From: Pirellulales bacterium
Lineage (GTDB): Bacteria; Planctomycetota; Planctomycetia; Pirellulales; UBA1268
Assembly: GCA_032117045.1 (NCBI GenBank)
Contig: JAUMAF010000032.1
Span: 1 to 58,797 of the forward strand
Reading direction: 5' to 3'
DNA: 58,797 nucleotides
In this document: piece by piece, positions 4,527 through 56,975 of the stretch
Numbering within the stretch: position 1 is the first letter of the stretch
Layout: each line of letters opens with the position of its first letter
Program-made: the position numbers and the translations under genes
The notes under the pieces: model-generated
Seen by the model: only the letters and a program-made list of their open reading frames with translations
Database searches by the model: none
Told to the model about the DNA's origin: nothing

Positions 4527-4528
4527 AT

Positions 4529-4650
4529 TCACGACTGCACGGCCATCCTGGCCCGTGCAGCCTGAACAGCGCGGCATCCTGCCGCGAACTCACGACTGCA
4601 CGGCCATCCTGGCCCGTGCAGCCTGAACAGCGCGGCATCCTGCCGCGAAC
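4529..4650. repeat. Perfect tandem duplication of a 61-bp unit; each unit holds two GC-rich hairpins
   Basis: Unit tcacgactgcacggccatcctggcccgtgcagcctgaacagcgcggcatcctgccgcgaac occurs at 4529-4589 and 4590-4650, 61/61 identical. Hairpin H1 is ctgcacgg..ccgtgcag (4535-4560). Hairpin H2 is cgcggca-tcc-tgccgcg (4570-4586). A partial third copy (4651-4666) coincides with the end of the IS remnant. Confidence 0.95.
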
Positions 4651-4655
4651 TCTCG

Positions 4656-5290
4656 GCTGCACGAGGGCGCCATCAAGCCCAACGCCGTGATGCGTCGGCC
4701 GCGAACCACCCGGGACGCCCAGATCGGCCTCGGCTCTGTGATGAACGCAATGAGTCGGATGTCTCCGTCTCACCCCGGGCACGCAAGCGAAGACTCCTCA
4801 AGCACCAGAGCCATGAGCTTGGCCCGGGCAAACCGCTAGGTGACACGGGCAGATGGCTAGCCATTTGAATCGCCGCCGGCCGCGGAATGTCCGTGCACCG
4901 CATGCCCCGCCGGTCCCGGCATTGCCGCGCTCAGCGACGAACCCGAGAGCGAGTGCCGTGACGGCGGACCTGAGTTTGCGATTCGGAGCGAACATCCCGT
5001 GATACCGGTGCCGGTGCTTCCGCGGTAACGGCACGGGATCGGCCAGCCCGTCCAAGAAGTCAAGCGGCAAGGATTCGACGACGCCGTGGGCTCCCCGCCC
5101 CGTGGGCTCCCGCCCACGACCTGGGCCATCGACAGCCTTCACAAGACCTTCAACATCAGGAGCGCAGCAAGCATGGTCTGCGCCGGCTCGCGACGCTTCC
5201 AAGCAATCGTAGCCGGGGATCGCGCCGGGGACGTAGCCGCGGCGTCCATATGGAGTCCTCGGGTCGCTTGCTCAAAGGCCCCTCAACTGC
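4656..5290 (-). pseudogene. IS91-family (Y2 HUH rolling-circle) transposase, decayed C-terminal remnant
   Basis: The minus-strand translation gives PLDFLDGLADPVPLPRKHRHRYHGMFAPNRKLRSAVTA, which resembles the conserved PLEFL..LA.LVP.PR.H..RYHGVLAPN block. About 70 codons later, in a different frame, it gives ACPG*DGDIRLIAFITEP, a CxxC zinc motif interrupted by TGA. So there is at least one frameshift and one in-frame stop. The N-terminal catalytic part is absent. Confidence 0.6.
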
Positions 5291-5350
5291 GTATCGTGAT
5301 CAATTCGTGAAAACCCTTCCTTGCTCCGTTTTTTTAGGGGAGATCCCACC

Positions 5351-6685
5351 ATGAAACGAGCCTCACTCGTACCGCTCGTGGTCATCCTCGTGTTAGTCGT
5401 CACGATGTCTGGTGAGTCCCATGGCGAGCCCGTCGCTCCGGCGTCGGCCAGTTCCGTAGTGCTCGTGGCTGGGAACGTCTGGGACGGTCTCGCCGATGCG
5501 GCTCTCGGTCCGATGGAGATCCTCGTTCAGGGCGGTCGGATTGCAGGCATGGGCAAGACGGTCGAGCGTCCCGTCGGGGCCCAAATCGTCGATCTCTCTG
5601 AGCACACCGTGACCCCCGGTTTCATCGACTGTCATGTCCACATCACGATGCGGCCGGAAGACGAGGGAGCGATCTGGGCACTTTCCCCCGCCGACAAGGC
5701 CGTGCTCGGCGTGCAGGCACTTCGCGTCCTGCTGGACCGCGGATTCACGACGGTTCGCGACCTCTGCGACATGGACTTCGGCGGCTATACCACGGTGTCG
5801 CTCCAGCGGGCCGTGGAGAAGGGACTCGTTGCCGGCCCCCGCATGATCGTGGCAGCGCACCTCGTGTCAACGAGCGGTGGTCACGGCGACGCGCGTCCCC
5901 TCGAGGCGGCGCAGACTCCGGTCACCCAGATCAACTTGGCGGACGGTGTTGATGAGATCCGCCGGGTCGTCCGCACCGAGGTGAGCCGGGGCTCGCAGTG
6001 GATCAAGTTCGGTGCGACCGGCGGATTCGCTAGTCCGGCCGATGATCCATCGCAGGTGCCTTACAGTCAGGCGGAGATTGACGCGATCGTCTCGACGGCC
6101 CGTGACCTTGGCGTCCCCTGCACGCCTCACGCCTACGGCGACGAGGGCATTCGCCGCTCGATCATGGCGGGCGTTCGAAGTGTCGAGCACGGCAGCATGG
6201 CATCGCTCGAGACGTTGAAACTTATGGAGACTCGCGGCGTTTATCTGGTACCCACGCAGATCGCCGTCGTGCGGTTTGCGCGGCTCATTGATGACGATGC
6301 CTTCTGGAAAGCGGTCAATGAGCCACCTCATGTTCGGGCGAAGTATCGCAAACACGCGAAGGCTATTGTCGAGAGCGCTCGCAACCTTTCCACCTGCGGC
6401 GTGAAGATAGCCCTCGGCAGCGATTTTGGCACATTCCCACTGGAGCAGAGCAATGCAGCCGAGTTCACCGAACTGGTGGCCAACGGGCTGTCGATTCCTC
6501 GCGCCCTACGAGCCGGAACGAGCGTGGCGGCCGAACTATTGATGCGAGATGACATCGGCGTACTCGCGGTTGGCAAGGCCGCCGATATCGTCGCCATGCC
6601 GGGCGATCCGTTTAAGGACATCACTGTCACCGAACGGGTCGATTTCGTGATGAAGGGCGGCGTGGTCGCAAAAAGCTGTCGGTGA
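5351..6685 (+). CDS. Secreted metal-dependent amidohydrolase (COG1228 imidazolonepropionase / Xaa-Pro dipeptidase-like family)
   Basis: ATG 5351 is preceded by AGGGGAG. Signal-like N-terminus MKRASLVPLVVILVLVV. HxH motif TPGFIDCHVHI, later metal ligands CTPHAYGD, SVEHGS, ALGSDFG. Codon usage is visibly less GC3-biased than in neighbouring genes. Confidence 0.85.
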   Translation: MKRASLVPLVVILVLVVTMSGESHGEPVAPASASSVVLVAGNVWDGLADAALGPMEILVQGGRIAGMGKTVERPVGAQIVDLSEHTVTPGFIDCHVHITMRPEDEGAIWALSPADKAVLGVQALRVLLDRGFTTVRDLCDMDFGGYTTVSLQRAVEKGLVAGPRMIVAAHLVSTSGGHGDARPLEAAQTPVTQINLADGVDEIRRVVRTEVSRGSQWIKFGATGGFASPADDPSQVPYSQAEIDAIVSTARDLGVPCTPHAYGDEGIRRSIMAGVRSVEHGSMASLETLKLMETRGVYLVPTQIAVVRFARLIDDDAFWKAVNEPPHVRAKYRKHAKAIVESARNLSTCGVKIALGSDFGTFPLEQSNAAEFTELVANGLSIPRALRAGTSVAAELLMRDDIGVLAVGKAADIVAMPGDPFKDITVTERVDFVMKGGVVAKSCR

Positions 6686-6740
6686 GTACGCTTCGGTCGC
6701 CGTGTGGAGCCTGCGCCGCGGAAAGCTCCGGATAGAGCGA

Positions 6741-6961
6741 CGGTGATTCAAATGGCAAGCCCCGCTCCCATGACACCTCGTGGCCTGCGCGGGCTAGGCT
6801 CATGGCTTGGATGGGTGAGAAGTTTTTGCTTGCGTGCCCGGGGTGCGGCGGCGACATCCGACTCTTTGCGTTCATCACAGAGCCGAGGCGGATCTGGGCG
6901 TCCCGGGTGGTTCGCGTCCCACGCCTTACGGCGTTGGGCTTGGATGGGGGCCTCGTGCAGC
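6741..6961 (+). pseudogene. Second, shorter IS91-family transposase C-terminal remnant, inverted relative to 4656-4875
   Basis: The reverse complement aligns by hand to 4656-4875 at roughly 80% identity. It translates to LLACPGCGGDIRLFAFITEPRRI (CxxC intact). No upstream transposase sequence remains. It ends with the same hairpin and terminal cctcgtgcagc as the left copy. Confidence 0.6.
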
Positions 6962-7073: not shown

Positions 7074-7146
7074 GGCACGAACTCAGCGAGGGGCGGCCCG
7101 TGCCACCCCGAGCCACGCAAACGTCCTGCGACGGAGCATGGGCTCC
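7074..7146 (+). repeat. Degenerate / internally deleted copy of the long structured intergenic element
   Basis: ggcacgaactcagcgaggggcggcccgtgcc matches the 5' arm of the element. accccgagcc and aacgtcctgcgacggagcatgggc match its 3' arm. The central ~100 nt are missing. Confidence 0.6.
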
Positions 7147-9187: not shown

Positions 9188-9213
9188 AAGCCGACCGGCT
9201 GTAGGGCCGCGGG
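9188..9213 (-). repeat. Decayed copy of short hairpin repeat, subfamily R1
   Basis: aagccgaccggctgtagggccgcggg compared with the R1 consensus reverse complement aagccgaccggccgtgaggccgcgg. It lies 12 nt after the recQ stop. Confidence 0.7.
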
Positions 9214-9246: not shown

Positions 9247-9347
9247 CACCCGACGCCTCACGGCGTTGGGCTTGTACCGTTCACCCCACGCCTCACGGCG
9301 TTGGGCTTGTACCGTTCACCCCACGCCTCACGGCGTTGGGCTTGTAC
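9247..9347 (+). repeat. Tandem array (35-bp period, 2.9 copies) of short hairpin repeat subfamily R2
   Basis: Units at 9247-9281, 9282-9316 and 9317-9347: cac-cccacgcc-tcac-ggcgttggg-cttgtaccgtt. Each unit folds as CCC-ACGCC / GGCGU-(U)-GGG with a UCAC loop (GUGA on the other strand). Confidence 0.95.
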
Positions 9348-10517: not shown

Positions 10518-10594
10518 CGTCCGGCGACAGGGCACGGGCAGCCCCGAGCCGCGCACCATTCCATCCCGCGGCCTCACGGCCGGTCGGCTTTCAC
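10518..10594 (+). repeat. 3'-terminal partial copy of the long structured element, including an R1 hairpin
   Basis: cgtccggcgacagggcacgggcagccccgagccgcgc...cccgcggcctcacggccggtcggctttcac matches 21485-21560 of the full copy. It lies between the convergent tal and AraC genes. Confidence 0.85.
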
Positions 10595-10627
10595 GAGCCC
10601 GTGTGCCGAACAGGAGCCAGACGGGGC

Positions 10628-21366: not shown

Positions 21367-21600
21367 GCGAACTCAGCGAGGGGCTGCCCGTGCCCCGGAG
21401 CCGGCGTATGCCGCCAAGCGCAGCCAGGATGGCGGAGCGCAGGCGGCATCCGAGTGAGCGAAGGACAGGATGTCCGCAGCGAACGTCCGGCGACGGGGCA
21501 TGGGCAGCCCCGAGCCGCGCGCCAGGTCAGCCCGCGGCCTCACGGCCGGTCGGCTTTCACACGGGCACGAACTCAGCGAGCTGCCTGTGCCCCGGAGCCG
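21367..21600 (+). repeat. Long structured intergenic element, full copy 1, followed by the start of a second tandem unit
   Basis: The core is bounded by the inverted repeat ggggctgcccgtgcccc (21380-21396) / ggggcatgggcagcccc (21495-21511). R1 hairpin at 21532-21560. The unit restarts at 21561 (acgggcacgaactcagcgagctgcctgtgccccggagccgg). Confidence 0.9.
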
Positions 21601-24600
21601 GATCTCTCGGTTCGGGCCGGTTCGGGAAAACGATCCTGAATCGGCTGCACGGTGAGCAGTTCCGTGCGCATGCCCTCCATCGCCCGCACGCAGGCCTCGG
21701 CCGCCGGCAGCGTCGTGATGCAGGGCACGCCGTAGAGCACGCTCGCCGCCCGAATCCTGCCCTCGTCAGTCCTGGCGCCTTTGCCACGGGGCGTGTTGAA
21801 GATCAGCTGCACGCGACCGTCGATCAGGTGATCGATCAGGTTCGGATGCCCTTCCTGCAGTTTCTTCACGACCTCGACCGGGATCCCGGCGGCCGAGAGC
21901 TCTCGCGCCGTGCCCGACGTGGCGATCAGTTCGAAGCCGAGGGCCGCGAGCCTCCGGGCCAGCACCACCATGGCCTCCTTTGCCTGGGCACTCGCGACGC
22001 TGAGAAAGATGCGGCCCTTCTCCGGCAGGAGGATGCCCGCGGCAATCTGGCTCTTGGCGAAGGCGATGCTGAAGCGGTCGCTCACGCCCATCACTTCGCC
22101 CGTGCTCCGCATCTCGGGGCCCAGGGCGATGTCGACGCCGGCGAACTTCACGAACGGAAACACACTCTCCTTCACGCTCACGTGCCCTGGCACCGGGTCG
22201 GCCAGGATGCCCTGCTCCGCGAGGCTCCGCCCCGCCATCACCTTCACCGCCACCTTGGCCACCGGCAGCCCGGTGGCCTTGGCCACGAACGGCACCGTGC
22301 GGCTGGCTCGTGGATTGACCTCGATGACATACAGCGACTGGCCGCTCGCGCCGTCGGAGCCGGCCTCCTTCTTGACAGCGAACTGCACGTTCATGAGCCC
22401 CACCACGCCCAAGCTCTTCGCGAGCCCCGTTGCCGCCGTCTTGATCTCGGCGATCATTTCGGTCGACAGGCTGTGGGGCGGGATGCAGCAGGCGGAGTCG
22501 CCGGAATGAACGCCCGCCTCCTCGATATGCTCCATCACCCCCGCCACGATCACGTCCTTGCCGTCGCAGATGCAGTCGACGTCGACCTCGATCGCATCTT
22601 CGAGGAAGCGGTCGATGAGGACCGGCTGCCCCTGGGCAACAATGAAGGCCTCGGCGACATACCGCTCGAACTGGGTCTGGTCGTAGCAGATCTCCATCGC
22701 CCGGCCACCGAGCACGAAACTTGGCCGCACCAGGCTCGGGTAGCCGATCCGGGCCACCTCACGGCGGGCCTGCTCGAGCGTCCGCGCGATCCCACTGGCG
22801 GGCTGCTTGAGGCCGAGTCGGTCCAGGAGTTCGCGAAATTGCTCGCGGTCCTCCGCCATTTCGATCGTGTCGACGCTCGTGCCGATGATCGGCAGGCCGG
22901 CGGAGAGGAGGGCGCGGGCGAGGTTGAGCGGCGTCTGCCCGCCCAACTGCACGATCACGCCGTCGGGCTCGATGCGGTCGGCGATGTTGAGCACATCTTC
23001 GCAGGTGAGCGGCTCGAAGAAGAGCATGTCGCTCGTGTCGTAGTCGGTGCTGACGGTCTCGGGATTCGAGTTGACCATCACGCTCTCGATGCCCATCTCG
23101 CGGAGGGCAAAACTGGCGTGGCAGCAGCAGTAGTCAAACTCGATGCCCTGGCCGATCCGGTTGGGACCACCGCCGAGGATCATCACCCGCTTCTTGCCGG
23201 GCTCCTTTGGCCGTGTCTCGTCTTCGTCTTCCCAGGTCGAGTAGTAGTAGGGAGTCTGGGCCTCGAACTCGGCCGCGCAGGTATCGACCGACTTGTACGT
23301 CGCGACGATGCCCCTTCGCTTCCGCTCAGCCCGCACCTCGAGTTCCGAGGATTCGAGCATCACCGCCAGTTGCCGGTCGGAGAAGCCCGCCTGCTTTGCC
23401 ATCCGAAGCAGGCCGTCGTCGACGGCCGCGATCGAGCCCACCGTGCGGAGCAGGCTTTCGATCTCGACGATCTGCTGCAGCTGATCGAGGAACCAGCGGT
23501 CGATTGCGGTGATCTCATGAATCTCTTCGACGGTGAGCCCCGCCTTGATCGCATACCGCAGATACCAGACACGGTCGGGGTCGGGGGTCGCGATCCGGGC
23601 GCGGATGTCGTCGAGCGATGGCTCGGCAGGCGTGGCCCAGAGATCCTTCGAGTCGCTCCCGAAGCCGAAACTTCCCACCTCCAGGCCACGCAGCGCCTTC
23701 TGGAAGGCCTCCTTGAAGGTCCGTCCGATCGCCATGGTCTCTCCCACGCTCTTCATCTGCGTGGTGAGCCGGTTGTCGGCCTCGGGAAACTTCTCGAACG
23801 CGAATCTCGGCACCTTGACCACGACATAGTCGATCGAGGGCTCGAAGCAGGCCTTCGTCTTCCGCGTGATGTCGTTGGGGAGTTCGTGCAGCCGCCAGCC
23901 CACCGCCAGCTTGGCGGCGATCTTGGCGATGGGAAAACCGGTGGCCTTGCTGGCGAGCGCCGATGAGCGGCTGACCCGCGGATTCATCTCGATCACGATC
24001 ATGCGGCCAGTCGCGGGCTCGACGGCAAACTGGATGTTCGATCCGCCGGTCTCGACGCCGATCGCGCGGATCACGGCAAAACTGGCGTCCCGCATCCGCT
24101 GGTATTGCTTGTCGGTGAGCGTCATCGCCGGGGCGACGGTGATCGAGTCGCCGGTATGCACGCCGCAGGGGTCGAAATTCTCGATGGAGCAGATCACGAC
24201 GGCGTTGTCGTCGACGTCGCGCATCACCTCCATCTCGTATTCCTTCCAGCCGAGGATCGATTCCTCGACCAGCACCTCGCCGACGGGGGAGAGATCGAGC
24301 CCCCGTTGCACCTTGTGGTCGAACTCCTCGCGGTTGTAGGCCACGCCCGAGCCCGAGCCGCCGAGCGTGAAGCTCGGACGGATGACCGCCGGCAGGCCAA
24401 CCTCCGTGAGCACCTCCCGGGCCTCGGCGAGGCTCCTGACGATCCGGCCGCGGCAGGTCTCGAGGCCGATCTTCTGCATCGTGGCCTTGAAGATTTCGCG
24501 GTCTTCACCGCGGCGGATCGCCTCGGCCTTCGCTCCGATCATCTCCACGCCGTGCTTCGCGAGAACGCCGTGCTTCTCCAGTTCCATCGCCAGGTTCAGG

Positions 24601-24884
24601 GCCGTCTGACCGCCGAGCGTCGGAAGCACGGCGTCGGGCTTCTCGACCTCGATGACCTTCTCGAGCGTCTGCCAGGTGAGCGGCTCGATGTACGTGCGGT
24701 CGGCCGTGCCCGGATCGGTCATGATCGTGGCCGGATTCGAGTTGACGAGCACCACGCGGTAGCCATCCTCGCGGAGGGCCTTGCAGGCCTGGGTGCCGGA
24801 ATAGTCGAACTCGCAGGCCTGCCCGATGACGATGGGGCCGGACCCGATCAGGAGAATCGTCTTGAGATCGTCTCGGCGGGGCAT
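21573..24884 (-). CDS. carB: Carbamoyl-phosphate synthase large subunit
   Basis: [28 protein letters not shown] and [24 protein letters not shown] (duplicated ATP-grasp halves) plus a C-terminal MGS-like domain. 1103 aa. No carA is adjacent. Confidence 0.97.
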
Positions 24885-25014: not shown

Positions 25015-25551
25015 ATGTCCATCGCCACACCCGCCCTCGACGCCTGCCGTGAGACGCTGCCCGATGAACTCAAGGACATTCGCCTCAATCTGGCCGCAGT
25101 GCTGACGGGGGAGAACCTCCAGCCGGCACAATCCCTGGGCACGGCCCTGGCTGCGGCGGCATTCGTGAAGTGTCACAGACTTGTCGATGCCCTCGAGTCA
25201 GACATCCGGGCCGGCCTCGGCGAGGCCGGCCCGGCCGTGATTTCAGACGCCGTCGCAGCCGCCGGCCTGATGGCGATGAACACCGTCTACTACCGGTTTC
25301 GGCACATGCTCGGCAAGGAGAGCTACGAGGCCCGGCCACCGCGGCTGCGGATGAGCCGCATGGCCCAGCCCGCCACGAGCAAGCTCGACTTCGAACTGAT
25401 GAGCCTCGCCTGCGGCGCGCTTGCCGGCTGCGAGCTCTGCATCAAGAACCACGAGGCGAGCCTCCTCCATCTCGGCGCGAGCGAGGATGCCTGCCACGAC
25501 GCCGTCCGCATCGCCGCCGTGATCAATGCCGCCGCCTGCGGCCTCGGCTAG
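25015..25551 (+). CDS. AhpD-like alkylhydroperoxidase (carboxymuconolactone decarboxylase family)
   Basis: 178 aa. The CMD-family CxxC motif ALAGCELCIKNHEASL is followed by AVRIAAVINA. Confidence 0.8.
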   Translation: MSIATPALDACRETLPDELKDIRLNLAAVLTGENLQPAQSLGTALAAAAFVKCHRLVDALESDIRAGLGEAGPAVISDAVAAAGLMAMNTVYYRFRHMLGKESYEARPPRLRMSRMAQPATSKLDFELMSLACGALAGCELCIKNHEASLLHLGASEDACHDAVRIAAVINAAACGLG

Positions 25552-25593: not shown

Positions 25594-25620
25594 GAAAGCC
25601 GACCGGCCGTGAGGCCGCGG
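25594..25620 (-). repeat. Short hairpin repeat R1 (stand-alone copy)
   Basis: gaaagccgaccggccgtgaggccgcgg, 43 nt downstream of the AhpD-like stop. It reads CGGCC-GUGA-GGCCG on the plus strand. Confidence 0.9.
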
Positions 25621-25657: not shown

Positions 25658-25682
25658 CCCTACGCCTCACGGCGTTGGGCTT
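25658..25682 (+). repeat. Short hairpin repeat R2 (stand-alone copy)
   Basis: ccctacgcctcacggcgttgggctt. It overlaps the last 5 codons and the stop of the minus-strand DUF971 gene. Confidence 0.9.
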
Positions 25683-26026
25683 CCTGGAGCCGTGGCGGCC
25701 AACTCGCGGAGATACTCGAGCGTATAGATGCCGCTCGAGTGGCCGTCGGAAAACTCGATCGAGTAGGCATATTGCCCCACCGGCTGCATGCCCATGATCT
25801 CGAGCGGGGCCACCTCCGCGGCCGTCAGCACCGGCAGCAGCGCCGGCTGCAGCGCCGGGGTCGCCGGGGCGGCCCGCTTCTCGCGGCAGGTCGCGCAGGG
25901 GCAGGCGTCGCGGAGCAGTCTGGCGGTGGAGACGGCCGCGAGGCCGTCGCTCCACACGATCTCGATGGCGGCTGTTGATCGTCCGTCGGCCACCCGGCGG
26001 ATTGTCGTCGGCACAGGCAGGGTCAT
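25667..26026 (-). CDS. DUF971 domain protein (gamma-butyrobetaine hydroxylase N-terminal-like, Cys-rich)
   Basis: IEIVWSDGLAAVSTARLLRDACPCATCREKR ... VGQYAYSIEFSDGHSSGIYTLEYLRELA is the typical DUF971 pattern. Its ATG overlaps the upstream stop (ATGA at 26023-26026). Confidence 0.8.
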   Translation of the reverse strand: MTLPVPTTIRRVADGRSTAAIEIVWSDGLAAVSTARLLRDACPCATCREKRAAPATPALQPALLPVLTAAEVAPLEIMGMQPVGQYAYSIEFSDGHSSGIYTLEYLRELAATAPGSPTP

Positions 26027-35277: not shown

Positions 35278-36897
35278 ATGCGGCGACATGATCAGCGGTG
35301 CGTGGTGCGTCAGGCGATCGCCCGCGGGAGGGTCGCTGCCGCGATCACGATTGCGACGCTCGCGTCTGTCGGCAGCCCGCTGTCGGCCGCCGCGGATCCT
35401 GCGAAGGCTCGCCCCACGACGAGCCTCGCCGATCTCGACGACGCCTTCGCGACCGCGGCCCGCGGACTCTCGCAACGGGCCAGAGCCGGTGGTGACGACG
35501 ACCTGGCAGCGGTGATCGCGGAGTGGAGCCTGCCTGAACAGGTCGGTCGGCAACTCGTGGCGACGATTCCGCCACGACTCGAGAAGCCGCCGCTGGTCGA
35601 CACGCCCGCAGAGGAGTCGATCTGGAATGATTTCTGCGCGGCCCGCCGCAGCCGAGCGGCGGGGCTGTTCGAGCACGCGTTGGCTGCCGCGCGGGCCCAT
35701 GACCGAATCCCCACCCGCGACGAACTGGCGAACGCCATCGATGGGGATGCACCACCGCTGCCGCAGCAGTCGTGCGAGGCGGTGCGACTGCTGTTTCTCG
35801 CGCTGCGGGATGATCCCGATCACGAGCGGGCCCGCGCGGCGGGAGGCTTCGTCAAGCGGGGCGACGACTGGCTCGGGCCGGAGGCGGCGCGGCGGCTCGA
35901 CAAGGGCGAAGCGTATGACCCAGCCTTCGGCTGGATGCCGAAGGCGAAGCTGGAGCGATACCGTCGGGGAGAGCGGCTGGATCGGGGCCGCTGGATCACG
36001 ACCGCGGCCGATGATGCCGAGCCGCGGGACTTGAAGCACCCCAGGGAGTTTCACTCCGATCACTGGGAGATCGTCAGCACCGCCCGCCTCGCGGATGCCG
36101 CCGCACTGGCCGGTTGCCTGGAGGAAACCCACGCCGTCTGGCAGCAGATCTTCGGGGCCTTCGCCTTCGAACCGCAGGATCTCGAGAAACGGCTGGCGGG
36201 CCGGGGCCGCACGGCCCCACGCACGCCCCACGCGGCGATCCTCTGCGCCAATCGCGGCCAATACGTCAAGGAACTCGAACCGCTCGAGCCGCTGATCGGG
36301 AAGACCGACGGCATCTACTGGACGCCGACCAAGACGATCTGGTGTTATGCCCGGCCGTCGGCGGCGGGGACCGATGACGGCGACGATCCGACACGCCCCG
36401 ATACCACGCGTTTCGATCCGATCACGGTGCATCACGAGGCCACGCACCAGCTGTTTGGTGAAGCGCGGCCCGACGTGGCAAAGGCGCGGCAGCTCGCGGG
36501 AGAGCGGTGCGGATTCTGGGCGATCGAGGCTGCGGCTTGCTACATGGAAACGCTCCGGCCGACACCCTTCGGCTGGACGGTGGGCGGCCGAGACGCGGGG
36601 CGTGTGCCGGCGGCGAAGGAACGGCTCGACGACGGCTTTTTCGTGCCGCTCGAGGAGCTCTGCGGCCTGGGCCGGAAAGCGTTTCAGGCCGATGACCGGC
36701 TGCCGCAGATCTACAGCCAGATTGCGGGCCTCGCCGATTTCTTTATGAACGGCGCGGAGGGCCGCTACCGCGAGCCGTTCGTGGAGTACCTCGTTCGCGT
36801 CTACTCGGGCACCGCCGATCCCGATACGCTCGTCCGCCTCTGTAAGCGAAGCTTCGCCGACCTCGATGCCGACTACCGCCGCCACCTCTCCCGGTGA
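35278..36897 (+). CDS. Secreted hypothetical protein with an HExxH motif (possibly DUF1570 / peptidase-MA-like)
   Basis: AGGAGG precedes the ATG at 35278. Signal-like AAITIATLASVGSPLSAAADP. Single zinc-metallopeptidase-like motif ITVHHEATHQLF. The family assignment is unverified. Confidence 0.5.
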   Translation: MRRHDQRCVVRQAIARGRVAAAITIATLASVGSPLSAAADPAKARPTTSLADLDDAFATAARGLSQRARAGGDDDLAAVIAEWSLPEQVGRQLVATIPPRLEKPPLVDTPAEESIWNDFCAARRSRAAGLFEHALAAARAHDRIPTRDELANAIDGDAPPLPQQSCEAVRLLFLALRDDPDHERARAAGGFVKRGDDWLGPEAARRLDKGEAYDPAFGWMPKAKLERYRRGERLDRGRWITTAADDAEPRDLKHPREFHSDHWEIVSTARLADAAALAGCLEETHAVWQQIFGAFAFEPQDLEKRLAGRGRTAPRTPHAAILCANRGQYVKELEPLEPLIGKTDGIYWTPTKTIWCYARPSAAGTDDGDDPTRPDTTRFDPITVHHEATHQLFGEARPDVAKARQLAGERCGFWAIEAAACYMETLRPTPFGWTVGGRDAGRVPAAKERLDDGFFVPLEELCGLGRKAFQADDRLPQIYSQIAGLADFFMNGAEGRYREPFVEYLVRVYSGTADPDTLVRLCKRSFADLDADYRRHLSR

Positions 36898-36916
36898 CGT
36901 CTCTTTCCAGGGCGGC

Positions 36917-37168
36917 CCGCGGCCTCACGACCGCTCGGCTTGTACCGGATGGAACTCAACGAGGGGCTGCCCGTGCCCCGGAGCCGGCGTATGCCGCCCA
37001 GCGCAGGCACGATGCCGAAGCGCCGGCGGCATCCGAGTGAGCGCAGGACAGGATGTCCGTAGCGAACGTCCGGCGACGGGGCATGGGCAGCCCCGAGCCG
37101 CAGGAGCCCTTGTCGCGAGGCGAGCCGCATTGGCCCGCGGCCTCACGGCCGGTCGGCTTGTACCGGAT
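36917..37168 (+). repeat. Long structured intergenic element, full copy 2, flanked by 34-bp direct repeats containing R1 hairpins
   Basis: R1 + gtaccggat at 36917-36950 and again at 37135-37168 (2 mismatches). Core inverted repeat at 36963-36979 / 37078-37094, outer span 132 bp as in copy 1. Confidence 0.92.
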
Positions 37169-37206
37169 CCCGCGGCCAACCCATGGCCGCCGCGGGCGGG
37201 TCACGT

Positions 37207-37236
37207 TTGACGGCCGTTTCCCTGCACTTCTACACT
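37207..37236 (+). promoter_or_regulatory. Candidate sigma70-type promoter of tkt
   Basis: TTGACG (37207-37212), 18-nt spacer, TACACT (37231-37236). RBS GAAGGAG at 37259-37265, ATG at 37271. Confidence 0.35.
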
Positions 37237-37270
37237 CCCCGCGTTCGTCCAACGCCCCGAAGGAGCCTTC

Positions 37271-44075: not shown

Positions 44076-44104
44076 GTGAAAGCCGACCGGCCATGAGGCC
44101 GCAG
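44076..44104 (-). repeat. Short hairpin repeat R1 (stand-alone, loop variant AUGA)
   Basis: gtgaaagccgaccggccatgaggccgcag begins 3 nt after the AraC stop. Confidence 0.85.
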
Positions 44105-45551: not shown

Positions 45552-48500
45552 ATGACTTGCTGCCACCGGAGGCGGCCCGCCGATCGCGGGGCCGCTGTTC
45601 GTGTTGTGATCGTGCTGGCCCTCGCCGCCCTCGTGGGATCTCGCTCTCACGCCGAGGTTCTTCTCTACAACTACCTGCAGAACAGCACGGCAAGCTTCAC
45701 CGGCTCCGGCTACACCTACAACGCCTACGACTTCCGAGACAACCGTGAGGCGCTGGCCGAGCGGTTCGTCACCCAGGTGGGCGGCAACGTCATCACCGAC
45801 GTCAAGGTGAATCTCTGGACCGGACTCCCCAACGCGGGAACATTCACGGTCAGCCTCTACTCCGACAGCTCGAACGCCGTTGGCACGAGAGTTGCCACCC
45901 TGGGCACCCGCGACCTTTCCACAATCTATGCCGCAGCCCCTGGGACCCTGACTTCCACCACCTTCAGCGGCCTGAGCCTCGGCCTGACGCCCACCACCTC
46001 CTACTGGATCGTGGTGGAGAACAGTTCCGGCGTCGTCGGCAGTGGGATGTACTGGGGCCTCGGCGGCACCGGCTCCAGCGCCTACGTGTCGCCGAACCCC
46101 ACGTCCGCGGCGAGGTTCAACTTCTATACCACTCCCCAATGGTCGAATGTCAGCGTGCCGGCGCTCGGCATGCAGGTCACCGCCGTGCCCGAGCCGGCAG
46201 CCGGAGACGTCACCTGGAACGTCCCCTCGGGCAACTGGAATGTGGGCAGCAACTGGTCGGGTGGACTCACGCCCTTCGCCAGCGGCACCGCGATCATCGA
46301 TGGCGGCCGGACGGCGCTGCTGGGGAGCGGCGGCGTCGGCACGGCGTCCAGGGCCATCGTCGCGAACACCTCCACCGGCACGATGAGCCTCTCCGGCGGG
46401 CAGTTGACGGCCACTTCGAGCATCGTGGGCATGAGCCAAGGGTCGAACGGCACCGTGACCATCAGCAGCGGCTCCTGGACGAACAGCGGCGATCTCGAGC
46501 TTGGCCGTTCCGGCACCGCGACGATGCAGATCTCCGGCGGCAGGGTGAGCAATGCCACCGGCTACCTCGGCAACTACTACGTGACCGTTGGAGCACAGTC
46601 CAGAGGAAGCGCGACCGTCACCGGCGGCACCTGGGCCAATACAGGCGACCTCTACGTGGGCTGGTCGGGCGTGGGATCGCTCACCGTCAACGGCGGCAAC
46701 GTGACCAATGCCAACGGCATCATCGCCCACCTGCAGGGCTCCAGCGGCAGCGCCACGATCACGGGAGGCACGTGGGCCACGGCCGGCAGCATGGTCGTCG
46801 GTGGCTCCGGCAGCGCGACGATGACCCTCACCGGTGGTGCGGTGCGGGTGAACAGCGGCACGGGAATCCTCACGCTGGCTTCGGCGGCCGGGTCAGTCGG
46901 CACGCTGAACCTCGGAACCGGCACGACGGTGGGCACGCTCGTCACGAGCACGATCACGGGCGGCGCGGGCACCGGCACGGTGAACGTCAACGTCCCGGGC
47001 ACCTACACTCTATCGACGCCGCTCACCGGCACGCTCGCGGTGAACCAGGCCGGCAGCGGCATCATGATCCTCCGCGGCAGCAACACCTACGCTGGCACCA
47101 CCAGCGTGACCGCGGGCTCTCTGCAGGTCGACTCGAATGCCCGCATGGGCTCGAGCGCGCTGACGCTCAACGGCGGTAGATTCCGCTTCGGAGCGGCCTT
47201 CAACGACCTGCGTGCGATCACGCTTGGCACGAACAGCGGCACGCTCGATACGAACGGATTCTCCGTAGCCTCCTCGTCGGTGATCACCGGTAGCGGCGGC
47301 CTGACGAAAACGGGGTTCGGGGGTCTCACGCTTTCGGCGTCGAACAGTTACAGCGGGGGCACCACCATCACCACCGGCAAGGTGACGGTGACCAGCGGCG
47401 GTTCGATCAACCACGCCGCCAATGCCGTGACGATCGCCTTCGGTTCGACGGACGCGGCCGCCCTCGGGATTTCAGGAGGCAGCGTGACCTCCAGCACCGG
47501 ATTTCTGGGCGCTGCCGCGGGCTCGAGCGGCGGTGCCACGGTCACAAGCGGCACCTGGGCCAGCGTGAGCGATCTGTATGTCGGGTATTCGGGCACGGGC
47601 GCGCTGGTCATCGACGGAGGCCGCGTGTCCAACGTGCATGGCTTCGTGGCCAACAACGCGGGCTCCAGCGGATCCGTCACGGTCACGAGCGGCACCTGGG
47701 CCAACAGCGGGAACCTCGAGGTTGGATCGAGCGGCAACGGCTCCCTGGTCGTCAGTGGCGGGAGCGTGACCAACACCACCGGATACGTCGGCAGCGGCGG
47801 GGCCAGCACGGCGACGATCAGCGGCGGCACCTGGGCGAACAGTACCGCGCTCTTCATCGGGCTTGCCACCAACGGCACGCTCAACCTCACGGGGAGCGGC
47901 GCGGTGACCGTGGGCGCCGGGAGCGGGACCGTGACGCTTGCCCGCTACTCGGGAGCCAGTGCCACGCTGAACATAGGAACCGGCGGCGCGGCAGGCACGC
48001 TCACCGCGGGGATCGTCACGGGCTCCCGAGCCGGGGCGGCCGTGAACTTCAACCACACGGGCGACACCACCTTCGCACCGGCGATGATCGGCACGCTTGC
48101 CGTCACCAAGGCCGGTCCCGGCACGACGACCCTGAGCGGCATTAACACCTTCACGGGCACCACGACGGTCTCGGCCGGTCTGTTGCAGATCGACGCCGAC
48201 TCGAGACTCGGTGCGAGCACGCTCACGCTCACCGGCGGTGGCATCCGCTACGGCGCGGCGTTCAACGATCTCCGCGCCGCCACCCTGAGCGGCAGCGGCG
48301 GCACCTTCGACACCAACGGTTTCACCGTCTCGAATGCCTTGGCCCTCTCCGGCACCGGCGGGGTGACGAAGACGGGGCTTGGCTCGCTCACCCTGGCTGG
48401 CAACAAGAGCTACAGCGGCGGGACCACGATCACGCAGGGCACGCTCGTCGCCGGCGCCGCCGGCGCATTTGGCAGCAGTGGAATCATCGTATCCGGCGCG

Positions 48501-49220
48501 GGCACGCTCGATCTTGGCGGATATGCGGTGACCAACGTGATCACCAACGCCGGCGGATCGATTGTCAATGCCGCCGCGTACGGCGGGAGCCAGTCAGTGA
48601 CGGGCACCGTCTCGATAACCGGCACGATCGGGGGGACGGTGACCGTCACGGCTGCTGGTGAACTCAAAGGCAACCAGACCGTGTTTAACGGCCCGGTGTC
48701 GCTGGCGGCCGGGGCGCGGCATTCCCCGGGAACTTCACCGGGCACCCAGAGCTTCACGTCCGGACTCTCCTACGACGCCGGATCGATCCTCACCTGGGAA
48801 CTGGTCGCCAACTCCGGCACGGGGGCCGGCACGAATTACGACTTCCTGAGCGTCACCGGGGGAAGCCTGTCGATCGCAGACGGAGCGACGCTGGACCTCG
48901 TCTTCGATGGCGGCGGCTCGAGTGTTGCTTGGAACGATCCCTTCTGGAACGCCGGCCATTCTTGGACGATCATCGACATCTCGGGCTCGGCGTCGAGCAC
49001 GGGCGACTTCACGCTGGGAATGATCGGCAACGATGCCGTCGGGCAGTCGCTGCTCTCGGTGCGGCCGCTCGCCTCGTTCGAGATCGACCGCAGCGGCTCC
49101 GACGTGCTCGTCACCTACGTTGTTCCAGAGCCCTCGACGCTCACGACGGCAGTCCTGGGCCTGGCCTTTGGCTGGAGCGCCCTGCTCCGGCGGCGCGGCT
49201 GCCGCTACTCGAGTCCGTAG
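45552..49220 (+). CDS. Giant PEP-CTERM-anchored surface protein built of autotransporter-associated beta-strand repeats
   Basis: Signal-like AAVRVVIVLALAALVGSRSHA. Reiterated G-rich beta-strand repeats (ISGGxVSNxxGxxG, TGGTWANxG). C-terminus VVPEPSTLTTAVLGLAFGWSALLRRRG. Confidence 0.88.
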   Translation: MTCCHRRRPADRGAAVRVVIVLALAALVGSRSHAEVLLYNYLQNSTASFTGSGYTYNAYDFRDNREALAERFVTQVGGNVITDVKVNLWTGLPNAGTFTVSLYSDSSNAVGTRVATLGTRDLSTIYAAAPGTLTSTTFSGLSLGLTPTTSYWIVVENSSGVVGSGMYWGLGGTGSSAYVSPNPTSAARFNFYTTPQWSNVSVPALGMQVTAVPEPAAGDVTWNVPSGNWNVGSNWSGGLTPFASGTAIIDGGRTALLGSGGVGTASRAIVANTSTGTMSLSGGQLTATSSIVGMSQGSNGTVTISSGSWTNSGDLELGRSGTATMQISGGRVSNATGYLGNYYVTVGAQSRGSATVTGGTWANTGDLYVGWSGVGSLTVNGGNVTNANGIIAHLQGSSGSATITGGTWATAGSMVVGGSGSATMTLTGGAVRVNSGTGILTLASAAGSVGTLNLGTGTTVGTLVTSTITGGAGTGTVNVNVPGTYTLSTPLTGTLAVNQAGSGIMILRGSNTYAGTTSVTAGSLQVDSNARMGSSALTLNGGRFRFGAAFNDLRAITLGTNSGTLDTNGFSVASSSVITGSGGLTKTGFGGLTLSASNSYSGGTTITTGKVTVTSGGSINHAANAVTIAFGSTDAAALGISGGSVTSSTGFLGAAAGSSGGATVTSGTWASVSDLYVGYSGTGALVIDGGRVSNVHGFVANNAGSSGSVTVTSGTWANSGNLEVGSSGNGSLVVSGGSVTNTTGYVGSGGASTATISGGTWANSTALFIGLATNGTLNLTGSGAVTVGAGSGTVTLARYSGASATLNIGTGGAAGTLTAGIVTGSRAGAAVNFNHTGDTTFAPAMIGTLAVTKAGPGTTTLSGINTFTGTTTVSAGLLQIDADSRLGASTLTLTGGGIRYGAAFNDLRAATLSGSGGTFDTNGFTVSNALALSGTGGVTKTGLGSLTLAGNKSYSGGTTITQGTLVAGAAGAFGSSGIIVSGAGTLDLGGYAVTNVITNAGGSIVNAAAYGGSQSVTGTVSITGTIGGTVTVTAAGELKGNQTVFNGPVSLAAGARHSPGTSPGTQSFTSGLSYDAGSILTWELVANSGTGAGTNYDFLSVTGGSLSIADGATLDLVFDGGGSSVAWNDPFWNAGHSWTIIDISGSASSTGDFTLGMIGNDAVGQSLLSVRPLASFEIDRSGSDVLVTYVVPEPSTLTTAVLGLAFGWSALLRRRGCRYSSP

Positions 49221-52831: not shown

Positions 52832-55249
52832 GTGGTCGCATCGCGCAGCCCCCGCCCTCCGAGCGAGTCGCCGACCTTGTCCGTTCCGCCACAGACCGCT
52901 TCAACCGCCCAAAGCCCTGCGGCCTCGTCGTTTGCCGCTCGGATCACGAACTGGCTGATTTTCCACCGCACCAGACTCGCCGCGGTGGCCTTGATCCTGA
53001 CCGCCGTCTCTGTCGAGCGGTCGCAGCACCTCCAGTTCTCCCGGTCGATCGACACCATGTTCGATCGCAGCGACCCCGCGCTCGCCCCCTACGAGCGGAT
53101 GACGCGTGCCTTCGGCTCCAACGAAGTGGTGCTCGCCGCCTATGACGATCCGGAGCTGTTCACGCCGGCCGGGATCGCCCGGCTCCGAGGGCTCACCGCC
53201 GAACTCGGTTCGCTGCCCGGCATCGCCTCCACGACCAGCCTCGCCAGCACACCGCTGGGCGACTCGATCATCGACCTCGACGACGGCTTCACCGCCGGCT
53301 GGGCGCGGCGGCTGGTCTCGCTGCTGGAGGGATATGTCGTAGGGGCCGACCATCGCACGGCTGGCATCGCCTGCGCCCTCGCGCCGCATGCCGCCGACAT
53401 CTCCACGCCCCGGGCACAGGCGGTCTCCCGCGGCGGCACGATCGAGCAACTGCGGGCCCGCATGAAGATCCTCCCGATGGGCACCGTGGCCGGCGAGCCG
53501 GCCATGCTCCATGACGGATTCACGATGCTCACGCGCGACGGCAACCTCCTGGGCACAGGCAGCGGCCTCCTTGCCGGCGGCGTACTGCTCGCCTCGTTCC
53601 GTAGCCTTCGGTGGCTGGTCGTGCCGCTGGCGGTGGTGCTCCTCGCCCTCTGGACCACCCGTGGCCTGCTCGCCGTCGCCGGGCTCAAGCTCACGATGGT
53701 CTCGACCATGCTCTCCGCGATGGTGACCGTGGTCGGGATCGCCACGGTGACCCACGTGATCGTGGAGTTCCGGCGACAGCGGGCGGCAGGCCTCAACCCC
53801 ACCGAGGCGTTGCGGGAGGCGATCACCCTGCTCTTCTGGCCCATCCTCGGGGCGATCGCGACCGATGTGATCGGGTTCGGCTCGCTCGCGGCCAGCAGCG
53901 TCGGGCCGGTCCACGATTTCGGCATCATGACGTCGCTCGGCGCCGGAATGGTGCTCGTGTCGGCGGCGCTCGTGGTGCCGTTTCTGGCGCTCGCCGGACG
54001 CTTCGATTCCGACCCGCAGATGGCCTGGGGCGAGGGGTCGCTCGAACTGGGCCTCGACCAGCTCGTGCAGCGGATCGTGCGACATCCGCTCCCCATTCTC
54101 GCCCTCACGACCGCGGGCGTCGTGGCGGCGATGACGGGCATGCGGTGGCTCACCGTCGAGACCGATTTCACCAAGAACTTTCGCGATTCGAGCCCCACCG
54201 TGGCCTCGTATGACATGGTTGAGTCGCGGCTCGGAGGCGCCGGCGTGTGGGACGTGCTCGTGCCCGCCCGAGAGCCGATCGACGCAGCGCAACTCGAGGC
54301 TGTCGATCACCTGGCCGAACGGCTGCGACACGAGGTCTTGGTGCCCGCTGCCGATGGCCGCATGGTGCCGGCGCTCACGAAGGTGATGAGCATCGCCGAC
54401 GTGCTCTCGGCCGCTCCACTCGTGCCGCGCCGGCTGCAGGCCTTGATGGTGAATGCCATGCTCCGGAAGGATGGCACCGATCAGCCGGCCTTTGTGCGAG
54501 CCCTCGTCGGCCATGACCCTCAGGACGACACGACCTGGTTACGGGTGATGCTCCGCGCCCGCGAGCGGCAGCCTGCCGCCGCCAAGCAGGCCATCATCCG
54601 CCAGGTCCGGCAGATGGCCGCCGAGGCGTATCCCGCCAGCGCCGGCACCCCCGGGGCGGAGGTCACCGGCTTCTTCGTACTCCTGTCACAACTCGTGGAC
54701 CGCATGCTCTCGGATCAGTGGCTCACGTTTCTGATCGCCGCCGCCGGGATCTTTCTCCTTCTGGCCGTCGCCTTTCAGAGTCCGCTCCTGGCAGCCATCG
54801 CGATCATTCCCAACGGCCTGCCGATCTTCGTCGTGCTGGGGCTGATGGGCTGGGCAGGGGAGCGGATCAACATGGGAACGGCGATGATCGCGGCCGTATC
54901 CATGGGACTGTCGGTCGACAGCTCCATCCATTACATCACCGCGTTTCGCCGCCGGCTCGGGGTGGGATCGACCACGGCCGCCCTCGAGGTCGCCCACCAG
55001 ACGGCAGGCCGCGCGATGATCTTCTCAACGCTCGCGCTGGCGATCGGATTCCTGGCGCTTACCACGAGCGGATTCATGCCGACCGTTTCCTTCGGCTGGC
55101 TCTCCTGCCTCACCCTGCTCGGCGGGCTCGTCGGCAACCTCGTGGTGCTGCCGGTGCTGCTGGCCCTGCTGGCCGGATCGCTCGCCCCCGCCTCCGCAGC
55201 AGCTGCGAAACAGGTACAACATCGCCTCCCTCGGAGCCCCCACCCATGA
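52832..55249 (+). CDS. MMPL/RND-superfamily exporter
   Basis: Two blocks of 5-6 TM helices each follow a large soluble loop, the topology of MMPL/HpnN-like RND exporters. The start (GTG 52832) is uncertain. Confidence 0.7.
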   Translation: MVASRSPRPPSESPTLSVPPQTASTAQSPAASSFAARITNWLIFHRTRLAAVALILTAVSVERSQHLQFSRSIDTMFDRSDPALAPYERMTRAFGSNEVVLAAYDDPELFTPAGIARLRGLTAELGSLPGIASTTSLASTPLGDSIIDLDDGFTAGWARRLVSLLEGYVVGADHRTAGIACALAPHAADISTPRAQAVSRGGTIEQLRARMKILPMGTVAGEPAMLHDGFTMLTRDGNLLGTGSGLLAGGVLLASFRSLRWLVVPLAVVLLALWTTRGLLAVAGLKLTMVSTMLSAMVTVVGIATVTHVIVEFRRQRAAGLNPTEALREAITLLFWPILGAIATDVIGFGSLAASSVGPVHDFGIMTSLGAGMVLVSAALVVPFLALAGRFDSDPQMAWGEGSLELGLDQLVQRIVRHPLPILALTTAGVVAAMTGMRWLTVETDFTKNFRDSSPTVASYDMVESRLGGAGVWDVLVPAREPIDAAQLEAVDHLAERLRHEVLVPAADGRMVPALTKVMSIADVLSAAPLVPRRLQALMVNAMLRKDGTDQPAFVRALVGHDPQDDTTWLRVMLRARERQPAAAKQAIIRQVRQMAAEAYPASAGTPGAEVTGFFVLLSQLVDRMLSDQWLTFLIAAAGIFLLLAVAFQSPLLAAIAIIPNGLPIFVVLGLMGWAGERINMGTAMIAAVSMGLSVDSSIHYITAFRRRLGVGSTTAALEVAHQTAGRAMIFSTLALAIGFLALTTSGFMPTVSFGWLSCLTLLGGLVGNLVVLPVLLALLAGSLAPASAAAAKQVQHRLPRSPHP

Positions 55250-56763: not shown

Positions 56764-56780
56764 ACATGACGGATCAAGGC

Positions 56781-56960
56781 GCGGGTCTGCCCATGCCCTA
56801 TCGCTGGACGTTCGCGGATGCCATCGTGGCATCCGCTCACTCGGATGCCGCCTGCACTTCGCCATCCTGGCTTCGTTTGGCGTCATACGCCGGCTCGCGG
56901 GCACGGGCAGCCCCTCGCTGAGTTTATGCCCGTACAAGCCGACCGGCCGTGAGGCCGCGG
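56781..56960 (-). repeat. Long structured intergenic element, full copy 3 (inverted orientation) with a terminal R1 hairpin
   Basis: Arms gggtctgcccatgccct (56783-56799) and gggcacgggcagcccc (56899-56914), outer span 132 bp. R1 at 56932-56960. Lies between the convergent pepA and pepF genes. Confidence 0.9.
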
Positions 56961-56975
56961 GCTCTGTCGTCTGGC

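Follow-up and report, generated by a model that had tools for sequence, protein, structure and literature searches.

A family of genomic repeats with a predicted, covarying three-way junction in freshwater Pirellulales

In a contig of 58,797 nt from a Pirellulales bacterium (JAUMAF010000032.1 of assembly GCA_032117045.1; this whole stretch is referred to as the window and has a G+C content of 65-70%), an element of approximately 150 nt that lies upstream of the transketolase gene (tkt) recurs several times between genes. This locus raises the question of what is being maintained here, a mobile piece of DNA or a structured RNA. A preliminary description, made from the letters of the window alone, had left both options open and had likened the element to repetitive extragenic palindromic (REP) sequences, bacterial interspersed mosaic elements (BIMEs) or MITEs (miniature inverted-repeat transposable elements). 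Our analysis shows that the element represents a real and previously undescribed family of structured genomic repeats, since a three-armed fold is conserved on one strand and orthologous copies change more slowly than silent codon sites.

The repeat family in the window and in related genomes

Three full copies are found in the window, at 21369-21518 (+; copy 1), 36952-37101 (+; copy 2, including a GAACTCA leader at 36952-36958), and 56778-56927 (-; copy 3). With a covariance model of the family they score 156, 148.7, and 153 bits, respectively, so that full copies fall between 149 and 156 bits, compared to 25 to 29 bits for the opposite strand. Their places agree with those given in the preliminary description, and their recurrence is well above chance: a 19-mer from the arms matches 8 times with at most 3 mismatches (0.14 expected), and a central 19-mer matches 3 times exactly and 4 times with at most 3 mismatches (0.07 expected). 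Every full copy carries terminal inverted repeats with arms of 17-21 nt, which begin GCGAGGGG and read GGGGCTGC (arm word GGGGCTGCCCGTGCCCC); each arm is also self-complementary through GGGGC...GCCCC ends, as read from the sequence. With the 17-nt arms at 21380-21396/21495-21511, 36963-36979/37078-37094, and 56898-56914/56783-56799, each full copy measures 132 bp between its outer arm ends, as had been proposed. While this inverted repeat was correctly recognized, it does not mark the limits of the element, which reaches farther out, to GCGA.../...GAGC. Likewise, a G-T pair as the single non-Watson-Crick position of the stem is correct for copies 1 and 2 but not for copy 3, which has two more mismatches.

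Besides the full copies, the window contains fragments of the element and short hairpin repeats, designated R1, which are 35-nt REP-like units. A solo 3' arm module at 10518-10548 (+; repeat families D11 and D12) is followed by an R1 hairpin at 10563-10599, and an internally deleted copy at 7074-7146 (+; repeat pair I13; 18.5 bits) has kept both arms and lost the core. Both had been listed before and are real, whereas a solo 5' arm module (GAACTCAGCGAGCTGCCTGTGCCCCGGAGCCGG) at 21565-21603 (+), the reverse complement of which provides the last 9-11 residues and the stop codon of carB, had been overlooked; an R1 hairpin at 21529-21565 (+) lies between copy 1 and this solo arm. Copy 2 is bracketed by R1 units at 36914-36950 (+; repeat family D7) and 37132-37168 (+), which are genuine direct repeats of 34-37 nt with 95% identity, and a further R1 hairpin is found 5' of copy 3, at 56927-56963 (-). 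Two weak covariance model matches at 53663-53792 (-) and 25198-25245 (-), with 25 and 24 bits and E ~0.002, are probably G+C-rich hairpins.

When the central 19-mer was searched for without mismatches in 185,579 species-representative genomes, it matched at least 97 stretches, including at least 89 true copies in 16 metagenome-assembled genomes (MAGs) of Pirellulales/Planctomycetota. Among the matches listed, at least 26 belong to JBJTQP, at least 15 to CAIKWU, and at least 14 to JBPCTA, with fewer in the remaining assemblies, and 8 are chance matches in unrelated phyla. A scan of JGI metagenomes with another word pair added at least 120 further loci. The collected loci, which amount to approximately 1.5 Mb of DNA, are labeled with L-numbers (L001, L219, etc.). 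The covariance model, built from 57 copies, detects 102 and 126 copies in the genome and metagenome sets, respectively, some of which lack the search words. Judged by carB identity (99%), the window is closest to the MAG JBPCTA ("Pirellulales bacterium S1Ck117"). Many copies are located at contig ends, and the family therefore breaks assemblies.

A search of the whole window against Rfam 15 at gathering thresholds yielded no match, and at E <= 10 the region 36850-37250 gave only three chance-level matches (9-15 bits against thresholds of 40-45), in agreement with the preliminary description, which had recognized no known RNA family. Furthermore, a full-text literature search with diagnostic sequence words returned no matching paper, nothing matched the element among the viral contigs of IMG/VR, the plasmids of PLSDB or the phages of GenBank, and an exact look-up of the transketolase of the window found none on record. 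The distribution of the family is restricted to one clade of freshwater Pirellulales.

A covarying fold on one strand

The preliminary description had pictured one long hairpin enclosing a central hairpin built on GGCATCC. The strong structure is borne out, but the fold is modeled as a fully paired three-way junction, in which a long terminal stem from the inverted arms carries two hairpins, and GGCATCC is the 3' strand of helix P2 in this model. The terminal stem of paired arm modules comprises approximately 30 bp. It consists of P1, with approximately 22 pairs and two tandem G.A internal loops, and a 5-bp extension (P1b, GCCGG/CCGGC). In copy 2, the 5' strand of P1 (36959-36980, +) pairs with the 3' strand at 37077-37098 (+; columns 10-31 with 131-152 of alignment A2), which contains the 17-nt arm 37078-37094, and between P1 and P1b (36983-36987, +, with 37070-37074) there is a tandem G.A internal loop (36981-36982/37075-37076) that is closed by Watson-Crick pairs in L083, L044, and L034. 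P2 (36988-37035, +) has the form CG(U)AUGCCGCC/GGCGGCAU(C)CG with an inner G.A-type loop and a tip hairpin GCCA-GGA-UGGC (P2b; GGCACGATGCC at 37006-37016). P3 (37036-37069, +) is a 10-bp hairpin (37041-37063) with the loop CAGGAUG, extended by the pairing of AGUGA (37036-37040) with GAACGU (37064-37069). Both hairpin loops, at the tip of P2 and in P3, thus share the sequence CA(G/C)GAUG. The predicted RNA fold of copy 2 has a free energy of -98.7 kcal/mol (z = -6.6).

The predicted helices covary. Among 57 copies, 21 of 54 pairs vary on both sides, compared to 10.6 +/- 1.5 in shuffles and at most 10 with slid partners; with the refined structure and 102 copies, this rises to 33 of 58 pairs (shuffles 12.5 +/- 1.8; slid at most 14), including 15 of the 22 pairs of P1 (alignment A6) and 9 pairs of P3 (helix 6). 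Since the search words mask variation in P2 and the junction, the informative copies are those found by the model only. Compensated P2 variants occur in such copies without the search 19-mer (L040 1051, L025 6745, L029 3969 and 5289). The copy at L040 1051-1202 has a wholly different yet fully complementary P2 (AGGUGAC/GUCACCU), and its UCAC in place of GAAC turns the tandem G.A into Watson-Crick pairs. In L029 5289 and L077 5442, a U-to-C change in AGUGA is compensated by A-to-G in GAACGU. Furthermore, L086, L038, and L080 carry GC...GC instead of CG...CG at the base of P2, and a subfamily with GCU-AUG..CAU-GC supports the two outer P2 pairs. A junction register proposed by RNAalifold (GGCGU/ACGUC, "P1c") was dropped after reading the variant copies, as the swap at the P2 base in L086, L038, and L080 rules it out, and was replaced by the longer P2 together with the AGUGA/GAACGU pairing.

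The tip of P2 is variable, with a 26-nt hairpin inserted in many JBJTQP copies, other hairpins in L009, and P2 gone altogether in L071. The conservation of size noted in the preliminary description therefore applies to the copies of the window but not to the family, in which elements with the inserted hairpin measure approximately 179 nt and those devoid of P2 115 nt. In many copies (L005, L020, L037, L045, L056, L077, L027, L041, L047, and others), the insertion or substitution at the P2 tip is a small separate hairpin (CCCGGGCACCGATCCGCC...GGCGGATTGGTCGGG), which looks like a mobile module by itself. Within the loops, CGA replaces GGA in 26-30% of cases, and the two loops change independently.

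The fold prefers one strand. For 169 of 183 copies, the + strand is predicted to form the more stable RNA of the two strands, with an average advantage of 7.8 kcal/mol, and the same strand is more stable as DNA in all three copies of the window. G.U pairs outnumber A.C (119 versus 61) and G.A mismatches outnumber C.U (267 versus 12), with the direction of the bias agreeing across helices, although these counts are not independent events, because many of them are inherited. The element probably works via a one-strand fold, and the strand evidence fits RNA and single-stranded DNA alike. When flanks are oriented by the element, 67 of 91 copies (p ~2e-6; L001-L103 and the window) show a negative GC skew over the flanking 5 kb; this skew gives no link to the replication strand, since third-position (GC3) skew follows the coding strand.

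Persistence, turnover and the nature of the element

Copies shun divergent promoter regions and prefer the 3' ends of genes. For the 72 copies with both neighbors called by a crude gene caller based on GC content by codon position, 34 have convergent neighbors and 34 have co-directional ones (22 copies antisense, 12 sense), compared to 4 with divergent neighbors. On its 3' side, the element meets a gene end in 115 of 148 cases (median distance 45 nt), and on its 5' side in 84 of 120 (median 86 nt); head-to-head pairs of elements are common, with gaps of only 5-30 nt. In the window, copy 1 is antisense to the flanking carB and rlmL-like genes, copy 3 lies between a convergent pair of pepA-like (+) and oligoendopeptidase F-like (-) genes, and copy 2 is located between the stop codon of a gene for a 587-aa protein and the conserved tkt promoter at 37207-37236. 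This promoter (sigma-70-like TTGACG, 18 nt, TACACT), upstream of which the repeat block is inserted, is kept in relatives without the element.

Clustering of neighboring genes yielded only housekeeping genes as recurrent families, with no transposase, and revealed orthologous sites. The site at the 3' end of carB is occupied in the window, L103, L041, and L054, and is empty in L102; the convergent pepF/pepA site is occupied by copy 3 of the window and in L013 (2900-3053), the ruvA-ruvB site in seven loci, and a site at a gene for a metallo-beta-lactamase-fold protein in six. Orthologous elements are 79-95% identical, compared to 54-72% at fourfold-degenerate sites of the flanking genes. The seven ruvA-ruvB copies show 6 covarying pairs, compared to at most 1 when slid. 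Five of them are in sense and two in antisense orientation, a mixture that could result from recombination between the inverted arms.

Turnover is seen as well. Relatives with a 93% identical transketolase have a spacer of 105 nt at the tkt site, versus 373 nt in the window, and the entire block of R1, element, spacer, and R1 is missing there. On the same contig, the element is also missing downstream of carB (96% identical carB), and no arms were found in 34 kb of this relative. JBPCTA, the 99% relative, carries the element at the carB site, next to modules that differ from those of the window. Across the collected loci, 163 arms lie outside full elements. Tandem 3' arms stand beside full elements in L021, L023, L026, L029, L032, L034, L036, L051, L067, and L083, and tandem 5' arms in L013, L022, L023, L034, and L095, with a period of approximately 40 nt and three units in L032. 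The carB gene of the window itself (21573-24884, -) encodes 11 extra C-terminal residues read from the reverse complement of the solo 5' arm (21573-21605), with GAG at the position of the native stop codon TAG of the 96% relative, and JBPCTA has yet another carB C-terminus, beside R1 units.

The account that we prefer, although we hold it tentatively and would rate it slightly below an even chance, is a REPIN/BIME-like repeat that acts through its one-strand fold and has an effect at the RNA level where it is transcribed. A trans-acting enzyme that may recognize the folded single strand would copy and rearrange the element at the DNA level, duplicating no target; the best precedent for it is an HUH tyrosine transposase of the RAYT/TIRYT type. 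Where read-through covers the element, the stable fold would serve in the RNA as a barrier or a site of processing, in 3' untranslated regions (UTRs) and between cistrons, in the way known from REP/BIME elements. The REP/BIME-like character suggested in the preliminary description is upheld by the mosaic of solo and tandem arms and short REP hairpins, the placement of copies at the 3' ends of genes, and sites that are filled in some relatives and empty in others.

As in REPIN/RAYT systems, a pair of inverted arms forms a long single-strand hairpin, copies are extragenic and numerous (three full ones in 59 kb and at least 26 loci in one MAG), solo arms resemble remnants, target duplications are absent, and copies persist at orthologous sites; in contrast to these systems, the spacer of approximately 90 nt holds two covarying hairpins and is conserved at least as well as the arms, a GTAG tag is lacking, and no RAYT was found in the collected loci. 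The variable, partly tandem combinations of arms, core, and R1 at gene 3' ends and between cistrons recall enterobacterial BIMEs, the units of which, however, are simple palindromes of 35-40 nt with linkers, unrelated in sequence and devoid of a conserved three-way junction. Within the Planctomycetes, Rhodopirellula baltica has many tyrosine transposase genes with flanking repeat families, in which terminal inverted repeats (TIRs) occur as singles, dimers, and clusters (PMC3733652), with GGGGWSAS reported as the TIRYT end motif (Di Nocera et al. 2013, PMC3733652). These TIR families share with the element the Pirellulales host, inverted repeats beginning with GGGG, and the occurrence as singles, dimers, and clusters, but they differ in the motif (GGGGWSAS versus GGGGCTGC) and in their linked transposase, none of which is seen here. 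BOX elements of Streptococcus pneumoniae are likewise modular and intergenic, with pairing end modules, a tandem-variable module, a length of approximately 100-200 nt, and a stable predicted RNA fold; they belong to another phylum, differ in sequence, and repeat the internal boxB, whereas here it is the arms that are repeated, and the core forms a three-way junction. ERIC (IRU) and Correia (NEMIS) elements are imperfect palindromes of approximately 125-155 bp that lie in intergenic regions with transcription, fold as RNA, and influence mRNA processing, but they form one long hairpin, Correia elements have TA duplications, and neither has a conserved, branched, and covarying core.

Several points weigh against a REPIN/BIME-like repeat. 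No RAYT, TIRYT, or other transposase was found beside any copy or in the approximately 1.5 Mb of loci; a tblastn search of all loci with two Y1 transposase queries gave nothing at E < 0.4, but this was a weak search. The arms contain neither a GTAG tag nor the GGGGWSAS motif; the alternative tag CGTC is found within GAACGTCC, where the 3' arm module has its inner end, and is missing from the 5' arm. The core is conserved at least as much as the arms, whereas spacers are the less conserved part of REPINs. The covarying three-way junction of the core, together with the missing tag and the lack of a transposase in the collected loci, is a misfit to a plain REPIN, and conserved loops and junction, a variable P2 tip, and persistence at orthologous sites would be traits of a host-functional RNA. 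It should also be noted that, since copies were collected via exact conserved words, decayed ones are under-sampled and identities inflated, and that gene conversion among copies could mimic purifying selection.

Somewhat less probable, but a serious competitor, is that the selected entity is the RNA. A structured RNA acting in cis, within 3' UTRs or intercistronic stretches, would then serve the host as an exonuclease barrier, a terminator or attenuator, or a dock for a dimeric RNA-binding protein reading the two CA(G/C)GAUG loops, with copies multiplied by duplication and without a dedicated transposase. All helices covary, loops and junction are conserved, P2 tolerates the insertion of a tip hairpin and even its total loss, and purine-rich tandem G.A motifs are confined to one strand. 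The same sites (ruvA-ruvB, carB 3' end, pepF/pepA) are occupied across species by copies that change more slowly than fourfold sites. Moreover, copy 2 follows a stop codon and precedes the conserved promoter of the next gene, so that read-through would transcribe it in sense, and a group II intron inserted in element sense within one copy (L219) indirectly hints that the + strand is transcribed at that locus. However, the orientation relative to the neighbors is not fixed, as seen for co-directional genes and at ruvA-ruvB, presence/absence polymorphism and solo and tandem arms point to turnover at the DNA level, and the GGA-to-CGA change affects approximately 30% of the hairpins, independently in each loop. 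In its fullest form, a new class of host-functional RNA, approximately 140 nt long, with a Y-shaped paired three-way junction and two identical protein-docking loops, would be maintained by purifying selection at conserved sites that number in the dozens per genome (e.g., ruvA-ruvB and the carB 3' end) and would have spread in the manner of a mobile element through a freshwater Planctomycetes clade; we regard this as possible, though less likely than not.

The remaining explanations are disfavored. A classic MITE, that is, a cut-and-paste element derived from a DDE-type insertion sequence by internal deletion, mobilized via its TIRs and devoid of a host role, would account for terminal inverted repeats of 17-21 bp, a length of approximately 150 bp, many intergenic copies, and relatives with empty sites. 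We nevertheless consider it improbable: no target-site duplication of 3-9 bp was detected at any offset in 196 copies (k = 2-9, offsets 0-9; the sole excess was a 2-mer from genome-specific flanks), the inverted arms in the approximately 1.5 Mb of loci enclose housekeeping genes and one group II intron but no transposase with matching ends, the internal hairpins covary around a conserved core, and old orthologous copies have not decayed. The MITE option of the preliminary description is thereby set aside in its strict sense.

About as doubtful is the view that each copy is a gene for a small RNA (sRNA) with its own promoter, belonging to a trans-acting family that acts, e.g., as a protein sponge. 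The strand-specific fold and the conserved size would suit such a gene, and so would the GGA-bearing loops, as both loops are CAGGAUG in most copies, which invites comparison with CsrB/RsmZ-type RNAs; the likeness is to CsrA-type sites, as defined by the consensus from systematic evolution of ligands by exponential enrichment (SELEX), and is a resemblance only. However, the 70 nt upstream of 204 copies contain no conserved sequence, neither a sigma-70-like site upstream nor a U-tract terminator was found for copies 1 and 2, and only 5-30 nt remain between head-to-head elements. GGA is also unprotected: selection for at least one GGA loop, as the CsrA idea would have it, was not seen, with CGA in both loops of 11 copies versus 14 expected.

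Least probable is a self-cleaving, hammerhead-like ribozyme carried by the repeat, which we rejected on Rfam and covariation grounds: the three-way junction, the tandem G.A pairs lengthening one helix, and CCGAGUGA ... GAAC loosely recall CUGAUGA ... GAAA of the hammerhead core (for which CUGANGA ... GAAA, an A15.1-U16.1 pair, and, at a three-way junction, an NUH cleavage site are typical), but no Rfam ribozyme model matched even at E < 10, U4, the A15.1-U16.1 pair (here C-G), and the core spacing are lacking, the strands of the junction are paired among themselves, and covariation in L086, L038, and L080 pairs the CG before and after P2, which removes the required helix III register.

Noncoding elements of Planctomycetes are little explored, and the family offers hundreds of sequenced copies with rich covariation. 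As individual copies can be traced from species to species at orthologous sites, with a conservation that exceeds the neutral rate, it provides a test case for the question of whether REP/REPIN repeats are selfish DNA or structures beneficial to the host. The family also alters coding ends, as in the C-terminal extension of carB, and serves as a landing site for a group II intron. Should the fold turn out to bind a protein as RNA, or to be the substrate on which a new HUH enzyme acts, either outcome would be of general interest.

R1 hairpins, introns and further repeats

Solo R1 units are found just after stop codons. R1 occurs with two stem variants, GCGGCC...GGCCGGTCGG and CCCACGCC...GGCGTTGGG, which can be seen to differ on both sides of the stem since the loop TCAC and the tail CTTGTAC are common to both; read from the complementary strand, the loop is a GNRA tetraloop, GUGA. 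Other genomes have their own stem variants. In the window, R1 hairpins are located on the + strand at 10568-10590, 21534-21556, 36919-36941, and 37137-37159, and on the - strand at 9188-9210, 25596-25618, 44080-44102, and 56936-56958, with variants at 6918-6942, 9250-9344 (three tandem units with a 35-nt period), 25659-25683, and 4666-4698 (reverse complement). A constant association of R1 with the element was considered and rejected, as a TCAC-loop hairpin lies within 80-100 nt of just ~7-13% of copies; such nearby hairpins are nearly always co-oriented with the element (35 versus 4).

At 4525-4646, two tandem 61-nt units begin at the stop codon of a gene ending at 4526, and their - strand contains the hairpins GGCCAGGATGGCC and GCGGCAGGATGCCGC with the CAGGAUG loop of the element hairpins. 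Overall, the window has 12 hairpins with this loop, compared to approximately 1 expected.

The group II intron in L219 (3319-5316) is inserted within an element, exactly between GAACGUC and CGGCGAC, in element sense; a reverse transcriptase/maturase is encoded at 3759-5228, and the intron is recognized by the Rfam models RF02001 and RF00029. In another MAG, the 5' end of a 95% identical intron (L071 6822-6944) lies 6 nt after an R1-type GUGA hairpin. This placement fits introns that target stem-loops.

Two further repeats were noted in the window. Inverted repeats of 205 nt at 4674-4878 and 6738-6942, which are 83% complementary and carry R1-variant hairpins at their outer ends, surround an amidohydrolase gene (5321-6685). 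Finally, the region 45552-49220 consists of repeated coding-like units (families D1 and D5) with start-to-start distances of approximately 135-156 nt, which lie within a long open reading frame whose strand is ambiguous in the crude gene calls.

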